Of a stretch of DNA of 64,000 bases, positions 12,390-38,920 are shown piece after piece. Position 1 is the stretch's first letter, and each line of letters starts with the position of its first letter. The stretch is from the IMG/VR virus record IMGVR_UViG_2706795722_000001, positions 1 to 64,000 of that record; one strand, written 5' to 3'. The position numbers and the translations under genes are program-made. Source of the stretch: a virus (Duplodnaviria; Caudoviricetes). Below the pieces are notes generated by a model. That model was given only the letters and a program-made list of their open reading frames with translations. It ran no database searches and was not told the DNA's origin.

Positions 12390-12462
12390 TGGGATATAGC
12401 TCAATTGGCAGAGCAGGCGACTGTTAATCGCCCGGTTACAGGTTCGAGTCCTGTTTTCCCAG
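12390..12462 (+). tRNA. trnN: tRNA-Asn (anticodon GTT), no encoded CCA
   Basis: Acceptor TGGGATA/TTTCCCA, D arm AGCTCAATTGGCAGAGC, anticodon arm GGCGA-CTGTTAA-TCGCC, T arm ACAGG-TTCGAGT-CCTGT, discriminator G. Confidence 0.95.
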
Positions 12463-12510
12463 CGTAACAACTGAATACATGTCAACTAAGACCAGTGAAA
12501 GGGTCAAACA

Positions 12511-37093: not shown

Positions 37094-38290
37094 CTACTTC
37101 ATCTTCTTAACGATCTTGGGCTTCGGTTCGGATATGGTTTCCTTCACCGACGAACGAAGCAGGGACTTCTGAGACGGCGAAAGGGCCGCACCCTTGAGGA
37201 GCTTTTCGACCTCCGCGTTTGTGACCTTGTCCATCTGCGCAAAGATGGCGTCACCCACGATCTCTCGAACCTTGGCCGGTTCGTAAGACTTGCGTCGGGA
37301 CGACTTGAACTCGACGCTGTAGTCCTCGGTGTCGTACTCGACTTCGTCCTGGTCCATCGCGTCCTTGAGCATTTCTTCGACGATCTCGTCGATGGCGTAC
37401 TTGATTGCCTTCGCTGCGCCGTCCAGTTCGAGGAAGCGCTTAGCCATCTCGTTGCGGTCGCCCTGAATCGCCATGATGCCGCCAGCATCGACGTTCTTGG
37501 TTACCAGAGGACAGGTGGACTTAGCTACACAGAACTGGCACTCCGAGTTTAGGGTGCGCCTGCCGGGGTCAGGCTCGGCGATGATACGCTCGGCAACTCG
37601 CCGAACATACTTCCAGGTCTCGATGTTGTCGTCGCGAGTGAGGCGAACCTCTGCCGTATCGTAACGCAGCTGATCGAAGCAGACCCAGATCTCGTCGGGC
37701 TTGAGCTCCTCGCCAAGCTCGGCAGCGAGCTCCTTGAATGCAAGCTGAATTGCCATGCCGTACAGACGAGCCTGCGGCTTCTCGCGCAGCGCAGTAGACG
37801 TGAGAACCTGTCGCCAGGTCTTGTAGTCCACGACGCGGATGATAACCTTACCATCTTCCTCGAAGCGATCGAGGCGGTCGAAGATGAAGGTGTACGGAAC
37901 ATCGCCGATGGAAGTCTTGATGGGAACGCGGACCTTCTTCTCCACCATGAGCACCTCGACGTTCTCGAGGTTGGTGCGCTCGAACCACCGCTCGAGCATG
38001 TCGAGTCCGTCGGCGTACCAGGTGTTCTTGACGTCCGGAACTGTCTGGAACTGCTTCATGAACTCTTGCTTGAAGTACGCGACGATCCTGGTCCACTCGA
38101 GTTCGCAGACCTTATCGACGTACGACTCGGTGACCACCCGCTCGAGCGTATCGTGCACCGCAGACCCAAGCTTGGCGGGGTTACTACTGCCGCCAGGTGT
38201 GGGCGTGCGCTGCACGTTCTCGAGAAAGAATCGGTGCGTGCAACCCTCGAACGTCTGGAGGGATGACGCGGAAATCGTCGTAAGCTTCAT
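37094..38290 (-). CDS. PD-(D/E)xK RecB/Cas4-like exonuclease
   Basis: SASSLQTFEGC..RF, FIFDRLD...VVDYKT, Q..LY and C-x2-C-x5-C (ECQFCVAKSTC). Confidence 0.88.
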   Translation of the reverse strand: MKLTTISASSLQTFEGCTHRFFLENVQRTPTPGGSSNPAKLGSAVHDTLERVVTESYVDKVCELEWTRIVAYFKQEFMKQFQTVPDVKNTWYADGLDMLERWFERTNLENVEVLMVEKKVRVPIKTSIGDVPYTFIFDRLDRFEEDGKVIIRVVDYKTWRQVLTSTALREKPQARLYGMAIQLAFKELAAELGEELKPDEIWVCFDQLRYDTAEVRLTRDDNIETWKYVRRVAERIIAEPDPGRRTLNSECQFCVAKSTCPLVTKNVDAGGIMAIQGDRNEMAKRFLELDGAAKAIKYAIDEIVEEMLKDAMDQDEVEYDTEDYSVEFKSSRRKSYEPAKVREIVGDAIFAQMDKVTNAEVEKLLKGAALSPSQKSLLRSSVKETISEPKPKIVKKMK

Positions 38291-38520
38291 TTTTTCTTTG
38301 GCCCCCTTGGAGTCGATTTGCCGCCCCAGATTCCATCGGTCGAGCTGGTGCGTTCCCTGTAGTCAGCACACTGCTTTGCAACAGGACACTGCATACATAT
38401 CTTCTTTGCTTCATTGGCGCGGTGCGACTGACCCCGGCCAGGAAAGAAAGCGTCTGGGTCGTGATACCCTACACAGAGGGCTTTGCGGGTCCACTCTTCG
38501 GGCTCGATGTGGAAGGTTGC
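38287..38520 (-). CDS. whiB: WhiB-family Fe-S transcription factor domain, with no in-frame start codon
   Basis: My translation: ATFHIEPEEWTRKALCVGYHDPDAFFPGRGQSHRANEAKKICMQCPVAKQCADYRERTSSTDGIWGGKSTPRGPKKK*. It has four Cys (C-x25-C-x2-C-x5-C) and GIWGG, and its TGA overlaps the exonuclease ATG. Confidence 0.9.
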   Translation of the reverse strand, partial: ATFHIEPEEWTRKALCVGYHDPDAFFPGRGQSHRANEAKKICMQCPVAKQCADYRERTSSTDGIWGGKSTPRGPKKK

Positions 38521-38891
38521 ATGGGAGCCGATGGCGCCTGAGGCTTGTTCTCCTTCGCCGCAGGTGCATTCGTCTCCGACGTCTTGAGTGTTTCGTCCGT
38601 CTGCACCTGATCGAACAGCGAGGGCTCGGCAGATGCCTGTGCACCTAAAGGGGCGCGGCCACCGCGCGCCTCCAGCTCGAAGGCGGTCTGCGGCTCGCCG
38701 GTACCGAAGAGCTCGTCGGCGTCAGACTTAGCATCTGCCTCAGCGCGCTGCTCGGAGCTGAACGCGGTCTGCTGCATGTGCTGCTGGAATGCGGTCTGCT
38801 CGGGGGCGATGGGGCGAAAGTCGGTGTAGTTCACCTCGCCTACACTCTTGATCGGATTGAGCTCGTACGGTCCTGCGGGCTTATTCGCCAT
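38469..38891 (-). CDS. 140-aa hypothetical protein, possibly the N-terminal part of the WhiB gene
   Basis: GGAG RBS, GC3 bias up to about 38525, after which the coding bias switches to the WhiB frame. Confidence 0.7.
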   Translation of the reverse strand: MANKPAGPYELNPIKSVGEVNYTDFRPIAPEQTAFQQHMQQTAFSSEQRAEADAKSDADELFGTGEPQTAFELEARGGRAPLGAQASAEPSLFDQVQTDETLKTSETNAPAAKENKPQAPSAPMQPSTSSPKSGPAKPSV

Positions 38892-38920
38892 CTTTATGCT
38901 CCTACGGTTGTGGTTGTGCT

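Follow-up and report, generated by a model that had tools for sequence, protein, structure and literature searches.

Known Wbl proteins bind region 4 of sigma-A and DNA through an Fe-S WhiB domain and a basic tail. Programmed frameshifting is familiar from bacteria: the heptamers C_CC.U_UU.A and C_CC.A_AA.A are among the shift-prone sites measured in Escherichia coli, in whose genes they are under-represented, and the second belongs to the V_VV.A_AA.R class, named as the most efficient (PMC4066793). In actinophage genomes, the only frameshift that is routinely annotated is that of the tail assembly chaperone gene (PMC4524720). In this study, we analyzed a WhiB domain encoded on the minus strand of a phage DNA, in a window of 64,000 nucleotides (nt) that corresponds to positions 1 to 64,000 of the 76,964-bp virus record IMGVR_UViG_2706795722_000001; its nearest named relatives are the Tsukamurella phages TIN3 and TIN4, with 85.5% nucleotide identity over the locus. 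The frame that carries the domain (hereafter the WhiB frame) is the -1 frame of an upstream open reading frame (ORF) of 140 amino acids (aa; 38891..38469), which we call the 0 frame. We propose that the ORF and the WhiB frame are very probably one gene, recoded by a -1 programmed frameshift at the slippery heptamer C CCU UUA.

The WhiB frame and the slippery heptamer

The WhiB frame is open from 38721 to 38290, between an upstream TGA (38724-38722) and its own TGA (38289-38287). The original prediction, made from the letters alone, had described a complete WhiB on the minus strand, marked by four Cys and by the motifs DPDAFFP and GIWGG; its frame, -1 relative to the 140-aa ORF, was said to run between a stop at about 38720 and a TGA that overlaps the ATG of an exonuclease gene. 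The coordinates and the profile search bear out all these points. Counting the CCC at 38652 as codon 1, Pfam PF02467 matched residues 54-113 of the -1-frame translation with 57.3 bits (cut-off 23.6) and an E value of 2.3e-15, and the complete WhiB domain makes up the final 68 residues of the frame. Its ligands are Cys60, Cys86, Cys89 and Cys95, in the pattern C-X(n)-C-X2-C-X5-C, which is invariant in alignments A1 and A2, and the domain carries DPDAFFP, the GIWGG turn and the basic tail KSTPRGPKKK. A profile search against the PDB matched structures of WhiB, WhiB1, WhiB3, WhiB4 and WhiB7, over the WhiB part only. Going by family membership only, binding of a [4Fe-4S] cluster and of sigma-A region 4 may be expected here, and the WhiB part may act on host sigma-A and RNA polymerase. 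The elements of the proposed gene, in the order in which they would be read, are the following.

38469..38891, minus strand: 0-frame ORF of 140 aa, from ATG 38891 to TAG 38471-38469
38659..38663, minus strand: Shine-Dalgarno (SD)-like GGTGG, 6 nt 5' of the heptamer; tentatively, a possible 5' stimulator
38646..38652, minus strand: slippery heptamer C CCT TTA, read as Pro81 CCT and Leu82 TTA in the 0 frame and as CCC TTT in the -1 frame; proposed shift site
38290..38646, minus strand: predicted -1 part of the trans-frame coding sequence, 119 codons from AGG 38646-38644 to AAA 38292-38290
38629..38643, minus strand: first Cys pair, C-T-G-I-C (C.G[IV]C), directly 3' of the shift site; invariant in 15 aligned sequences (alignments A1, A2 and A3)
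38551..38568, minus strand: second Cys pair, C-T-C-G-E-G (C.CGEG), invariant in the same three alignments (A1, A2 and A3)
38314..38493, minus strand: WhiB domain (Pfam PF02467), followed by the basic tail KSTPRGPKKK, which runs to 38290

The WhiB frame had been predicted to contain no ATG, GTG or TTG at all. It does hold one such codon, the ATG at 38394, which lies inside the WhiB domain at codon 87, past the first cluster Cys, and opens an ORF of 35 aa; its product would be a truncated, non-functional fragment. There is no ATG, GTG or TTG 5' of the WhiB domain in the -1 frame, and in one assembly from the Sequence Read Archive (SRA), L106, whose ORF protein is 96% identical, none occurs in the entire 144-codon WhiB frame. 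A canonical X XXY YYZ site had likewise been declared absent; C CCT TTA at 38652-38646, in the context gcC CCT TTA ggt, is canonical and in the correct phase for a -1 shift, and it lies about 125 nt 5' of the switch point that the original prediction had placed at 38525-38511. No other in-phase heptamer occurs where the two open frames overlap, that is, from the -1-frame stop to the 0-frame stop. CCCTTTA occurs once in the window, both strands considered, where 2.2 occurrences are expected by chance, although this uniqueness alone proves nothing. In the long ORFs of the window, TTA accounts for 0.9% of the Leu codons, AAA for 5% of the Lys codons and TTT for 14% of the Phe codons, and the heptamer is therefore maintained against codon preference.

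Alignment to relatives, the check that had been suggested for the split gene, recovered the same arrangement well beyond this locus. With megablast, it was found in TIN3 and TIN4 and in 31 Gordonia phage records; with tblastn, the -1 translation from the heptamer gave alignments covering at least 80% of the query in 105 phage records, and most of these alignments begin at residue 1. In all, more than 100 records of phages of Gordonia, Rhodococcus and Tsukamurella, contributed by different laboratories, have the arrangement, and it is conserved across at least 10 phage lineages. The relatives examined comprised 13 annotated phages of at least eight genera, three independent SRA assemblies (L106-L108) and eight metagenomic viral contigs, together with IMG/VR isolate copies including GMA2; the annotated relatives belong to Tinduovirus, Montyvirus, Woesvirus, Getseptimavirus, Demosthenesvirus, Gordtnkvirus, Gorjumvirus and Orchidvirus, to which the Rhodococcus phages Perlina, ReqiDocB7 and Mbo2 are added. 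Every one of them has an in-phase heptamer at the homologous position, either as CCCTTTA (the TIN, Monty, Woes, GMA7/GTE7 and Katyusha groups and the three SRA assemblies) or as CCCAAAA (Perlina, ReqiDocB7, Mbo2, Gmala1, GMA2, Jumbo, Kampe and the eight uncultivated viral contigs). Both forms differ by the TTT/AAA triplet, so that it is the slipperiness and not the sequence that has been retained. The three SRA assemblies, whose ORF proteins are 65-96% identical to that of the window, have in common the ORF, an uncalled gap of about 175 nt, the heptamer and an ATGA overlap with the next gene. Furthermore, a TGA in the -1 frame abuts the heptamer on its 5' side in Gmala1, Kampe and L046; in Jumbo and GMA2, the stop is one codon further away. 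In these phages the -1 frame can therefore be entered only at the heptamer, where no start-like codon was seen in any of the five.

The frame under selection was followed by counting synonymous and non-synonymous changes (S:N) in eight Monty/Woes-type genomes that align without gaps.

240 nt 5' of the heptamer: 66:40 in the 0 frame, 13:93 in the -1 frame
First 20 codons 3' of the heptamer: 2:6 in the 0 frame, 7:1 in the -1 frame
Codons 21-55 after the heptamer: 9:24 in the 0 frame, 10:23 in the -1 frame
WhiB domain: 2:37 in the 0 frame, 33:6 in the -1 frame

In the same alignment, the proportion of variable sites drops from about 37% 5' of the heptamer to 13% just 3' of it. The S:N pattern indicates that the selected frame changes at the heptamer and not near 38525; no purifying selection on the 0-frame tail past the heptamer was seen in these counts. 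The original prediction had noticed a switch of codon bias near 38525-38511. This switch is real, since codon-usage scoring turns from favoring the 0 frame to favoring the WhiB frame at about 38530, but it does not mark the shift site. Thus the sequence and its comparison provide directly the heptamer, its phase and conservation, the startless open -1 frame and purifying selection from the heptamer on.

The stretch between the heptamer and the WhiB domain, to which we refer as the extension, carries four further Cys. The invariant residues of the -1 translation are P1, R3, C4, G6 and C8, then C29, C31, G32, E33 and G34, and then W54 and the WhiB residues. The codons of the motifs nevertheless vary synonymously across lineages: both Cys codons and all four Gly codons are used, and GAA alternates with GAG, and ATC with GTC and ATA. 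The constraint therefore acts on the amino acids of the -1 frame, and neither on the RNA nor on the 0-frame protein, for which the variable third positions of these motif codons are second codon positions. In Gmala1 and Jumbo the 0-frame ORF terminates at or before the C.CGEG motif. A word-index search of 5.8 billion proteins found no annotated protein that matches the extension, and a profile of it, run against 1.84 billion representatives, returned only two matches, both marginal and repetitive (E about 5e-4); this near-absence from protein databases fits a peptide that is invisible to gene callers. Judged only by their invariance, the four extra Cys may bind metal.

Two variants of the extension were observed among the relatives. 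In the group of Gmala1, Jumbo, GMA2 and Kampe, the segment between the Cys pairs is about 42 aa long and has conserved G.[FY].W..VT features; in a representative of this long-extension type (Gmala1-type, L038:1186-1617), a beta-hairpin between the Cys pairs was modelled with a predicted local distance difference test (pLDDT) score of about 75, which suggests that this segment may be a small folded insert. In distant uncultivated phages (IMG/VR contigs L109, L110, L111, L117, L118 and L120), C CCA AAA is followed by PKR..C.G.C, the second motif is altered (CG.G.W, C..TC.LGRW or CVCDEG) and the length of the extension increases to as much as about 100 aa. The WhiB-fusion family is thus broader than the isolates alone indicate.

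Proposed recoding and its alternatives

According to the mechanism that we propose, ribosomes would begin at ATG 38891 and in their majority read the 0 frame to TAG 38469, the 140-aa protein being the predicted output of those that do not shift. A fraction would slip back by one base while the P site holds CCU (Pro81) and the A site UUA (Leu82), a very rare codon; both tRNAs would re-pair on CCC UUU and the shifted ribosomes would read the -1 frame to TGA 38287. Tandem slippage would leave Pro and Leu as the residues decoded at the slip site, with AGG 38646-38644 as the next codon. The predicted fusion, complement(join(38290..38646,38646..38891)), joins 82 residues of the ORF to 119 residues of the -1 frame and would be 201 aa long, in three parts: the shared 82 N-terminal residues, an extension of about 50 aa with C.G[IV]C...C.CGEG, and a WhiB domain of the [4Fe-4S] type with its basic tail. 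The frameshift would in this way set a fixed ratio of two proteins that share their N-terminus, and it would be the sole route to the WhiB regulator. Slippage itself and its efficiency we infer from the sequence. The heptamer may have an SD-like 5' stimulator of the kind known from dnaX: all CCCTTTA-type relatives carry GG[TAG]GG at 6 nt 5' of it, most CCCAAAA-type relatives carry GGAGG/GGTGG-like tracts within 15 nt 5' of it, and the anti-SD duplex energies of these tracts are among the best 1-23% of the local 25-nt windows.

Several observations weigh against the proposed frameshift or against parts of it. No conserved 3' stimulatory structure was found in single-sequence folds of 12 lineages, in which pseudoknots were not searched; the fold z-scores of the 60 nt 3' of the heptamer range from +1.9 to -2.5, and two RNAalifold consensus folds gave -1.8 and -0.4 kcal/mol, without covariation. 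A stem-loop or pseudoknot 5-9 nt 3' of the heptamer is common for tandem-slippage sites but not obligatory, the phage G/GT sites being an example. The SD-like tract overlaps conserved Gly-Gly codons and its spacing to the heptamer varies. Within the extension, the S:N counts of codons 21-55 favor neither frame and the codon usage of 38621-38532 is closer to expectation for the 0 frame than for the -1 frame, and hence the middle of the extension is weakly constrained; the 0-frame-like codon usage may reflect an overlap in which most ribosomes remain in the 0 frame, that is, a modest frameshift efficiency. AlphaFold2 gave low-confidence models of the -1 product, with a mean pLDDT of 46 for the window version (A2) and of 57 for the Gmala1-type version (A6); only the beta-hairpin of the long-extension type came to about 75. 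Finally, Katyusha, Perlina, ReqiDocB7, Gmala1 and Jumbo have an ATG or GTG just 5' of the WhiB domain, from which a short WhiB could also be made in these distant relatives.

This last observation bears on the possibility that the WhiB domain is made, also in our window, as a short stand-alone protein of about 70-85 aa from a near-cognate or other non-canonical codon such as ATC 38532, the upstream motifs being by-products. A near-cognate start was among the options first put forward, and such a protein would be in keeping with codon usage, which turns to the WhiB frame near 38530, with typical phage WhiBs, which have 65-100 aa and their own start, with the start codons shortly 5' of the domain in the five distant relatives and with a GAAGGAG within the CGEG codons. 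We consider it very unlikely, given that there is no single position at which a start or near-cognate codon has been conserved, that nothing start-like is found 5-12 nt 3' of GAAGGAG and that the invariant Cys motifs stand 5' of all candidate starts; the synonymous variation in the CGEG and C.G.C codons speaks for selection at the level of the protein and not of the RNA, the selected frame switches at the heptamer, the -1 stops abut the heptamer in several lineages, and the WhiB frame of L106 lacks any ATG, GTG or TTG. The original prediction had also considered non-canonical recoding that would give a fusion of roughly 200 aa; the fusion is retained in our reading, at another place and at a canonical heptamer. 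A ribosomal change of frame at a non-canonical site nearer to the WhiB domain, at about 38525-38511, would account for the codon-bias crossover near 38530, but no second in-phase heptamer accompanies CCCTTTA in the interval from the -1-frame stop to the 0-frame stop, even TIN3 and L106 do not share the local sequence near 38525, the invariant Cys motifs stand 5' of that site as well, and in Gmala1 and Jumbo the 0 frame is already closed before the homologous region. These data make such a site highly improbable.

RNA polymerase slippage at the heptamer could in principle change the frame in place of ribosomal slippage, as there are short homopolymer runs at the site. These runs are, however, just 3 nt (CCC, TTT) or 4 nt (AAAA) long, and known transcriptional slippage sites need roughly seven or more identical bases; moreover, the conserved pattern is X XXY YYZ, set in the codon phase that tandem slippage requires, which renders a transcriptional origin extremely improbable. 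The remaining alternative is that the WhiB is an unexpressed pseudogene, due to a 1-nt deletion or to a sequencing or assembly error, and in one genome taken alone a startless domain in the -1 frame does resemble an indel. The ATG at 38522-38520, taken for the former start under such a deletion, is however absent in the closest relatives, TIN3 and L106, and the split is kept in TIN3 and TIN4, in the three SRA assemblies, in more than 100 phage records and in the eight metagenomic contigs. The strong purifying selection on the WhiB domain (S:N 33:6) and the retained ATGA coupling point in the same direction, and we regard the chance of a pseudogene or an artefact as negligible.

A different question is whether the frameshift at the heptamer, rather than being a device for a fixed ratio, acts as a regulated switch. 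The A-site codon always requires a scarce or modification-dependent tRNA (UUA-Leu or AAA-Lys), so that the output of the WhiB fusion would track the translational or the sulfur/Fe-S status of the host. A precedent exists in lambda G/GT, where frameshifting responds to the thiolation of tRNA-Lys, which competes with Fe-S cluster biogenesis (PMC3296357). Besides the WhiB cluster, the Cys4 extension may give the product a second metal or redox site; host physiology would then govern how much of an Fe-S regulator the phage supplies, and the 0-frame protein would compete with the fusion by means of the shared N-terminal module. It is tempting to speculate along these lines, although we consider a regulated switch unlikely.

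The 0-frame protein, the neighboring genes and current annotation

The N-terminal module of the 140-aa ORF is conserved: this shared part is homologous in all lineages, in which its length ranges from 32 to 103 aa, and carries an NP(I/V)...DFRP motif, to which three QTAF repeats are added in the CCCTTTA group. The 0-frame tail after residue 82 is rich in P, S, T and E and poorly conserved, and has from 49 to 70 aa across lineages. No Pfam family matched the ORF or its N-terminus, and searches of the ESM Atlas with the ORF and with the extension gave no usable match. The ORF does match phrog_6890, which is labelled "endonuclease"; we found no Pfam or other nuclease evidence for this label, which the upstream ORF family bears in RefSeq and in PHROG 6890, and it looks like a propagated error. 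An SD-like tract precedes the start of the homologous ORFs in 13 relatives, as it does here. The flanking features of the locus are listed below.

38899..38903, minus strand: Shine-Dalgarno sequence AGGAG, 7 nt 5' of the ATG of the upstream ORF, as read from the sequence
38287..38290, minus strand: ATGA overlap, composed of the WhiB-frame TGA (38289-38287) and the exonuclease ATG (38290-38288)
37094..38290, minus strand: PD-(D/E)XK (Cas4/RecB-like) exonuclease of 398 aa, downstream of the WhiB frame

The ATGA overlap is also present in L106, L107, L108 and TIN3, and the exonuclease would be translationally coupled to the WhiB frame through it. Directly 5' of this overlap, the basic tail of the WhiB domain ends in AAG AAA AAA TGA, with a six-A run at 38291-38300 (minus strand), which is probably just a matter of Lys codons, though it lies at the translational coupling point. 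A promoter-like or terminator-like site on the minus strand between the 0 frame and the WhiB frame was not found. The gene neighbors are a methylase and the Cas4-type exonuclease, and the gene is described as an early or middle, regulatory one. The sole tRNA gene in the window is that of tRNA-Asn (GTT; 12390-12463, plus strand); there is no phage tRNA-Leu(UAA) in it for the A-site UUA.

Existing records annotate either nothing at this locus or a "WhiB family transcription factor" fragment of 33-35 aa that lacks two of the four cluster ligands, and distant relatives are annotated with a too-short WhiB from an ATG or GTG, which begins past conserved residues. Besides, the 33 residues at the C-terminus of the WhiB frame match PHROG 11832 (E 9.5e-16; window 38287-38394; compare L002:1898-1999). 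This entry of 33 aa, labelled "unknown function", appears to be a family assembled from mis-called WhiB fragments. None of the database records inspected contains a join(...) annotation of the WhiB fusion, and no prior description of a frameshifted phage WhiB was found in the searchable literature on WhiB, on frameshifting, on UUA recoding and on Gordonia and Rhodococcus phages. If our reading is correct, a transcription regulator would have to be added to the few phage genes whose products arise through programmed frameshifting, and all of the more than 100 records of this arrangement would currently be mis-annotated. The three-part product would also alter what has to be cloned when such genes are tested for host take-over or toxicity, and the recoding field would gain a clean, deeply conserved bacterial -1 site without an obvious 3' structure.

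Comparison with known frameshifted genes and phage WhiB proteins

The stand-alone WhiB proteins of phages, such as WhiBTM4 of TM4 and those of cluster F and K mycobacteriophages, share with the protein described here the Pfam domain, the four Cys, G[IV]WGG and the basic tail. In contrast, they are ORFs of 65-100 aa with their own ATG, and have neither the N-terminal module nor the four-Cys extension nor recoding. A further comparison is offered by a metagenomic WhiB (L093:1141-1491; IMGVR_UViG_3300042923_000666), in which a short CP.C...C..C segment precedes the WhiB domain. It has an ordinary ATG and a single frame, and its motif is another one, for which no relationship in sequence to the extension could be detected; it shows that Cys-rich N-terminal additions to WhiB occur elsewhere.

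Among recoded genes, OrfA/OrfAB of the IS3-family insertion sequences (IS911, IS150, IS3) offer a parallel, in that a -1 programmed frameshift at X XXY YYZ joins an upstream N-terminus to a startless domain (PMC13313380, PMC4066793) and two products with a common N-terminus result. They differ in that the product is a transposase and that the usual site, A AAA AAG, comes with SD stimulators and a defined RNA structure, either a stem-loop or a pseudoknot. The G/GT tail assembly chaperones of phages (G GGA AAG in lambda, and the actinophage equivalents) also have a phage-conserved -1 heptamer that is recognized mainly by comparative genomics, and yield a short protein and one extended at its C-terminus in a fixed ratio; theirs is, however, a structural or assembly pair in the late operon, whereas the gene studied here is an early or middle regulatory one. 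The tau/gamma gene dnaX of E. coli is, again, a non-structural gene with a -1 shift at a heptamer, aided by an upstream SD-like sequence, and with one N-terminus for both products. Its shift truncates the protein, while that proposed here would add a WhiB domain, and neither its 10-nt SD spacing nor its stem-loop is matched at this locus. Altogether, the -1 frameshift mechanism is a textbook one; the gene class and the Cys4 extension are new.

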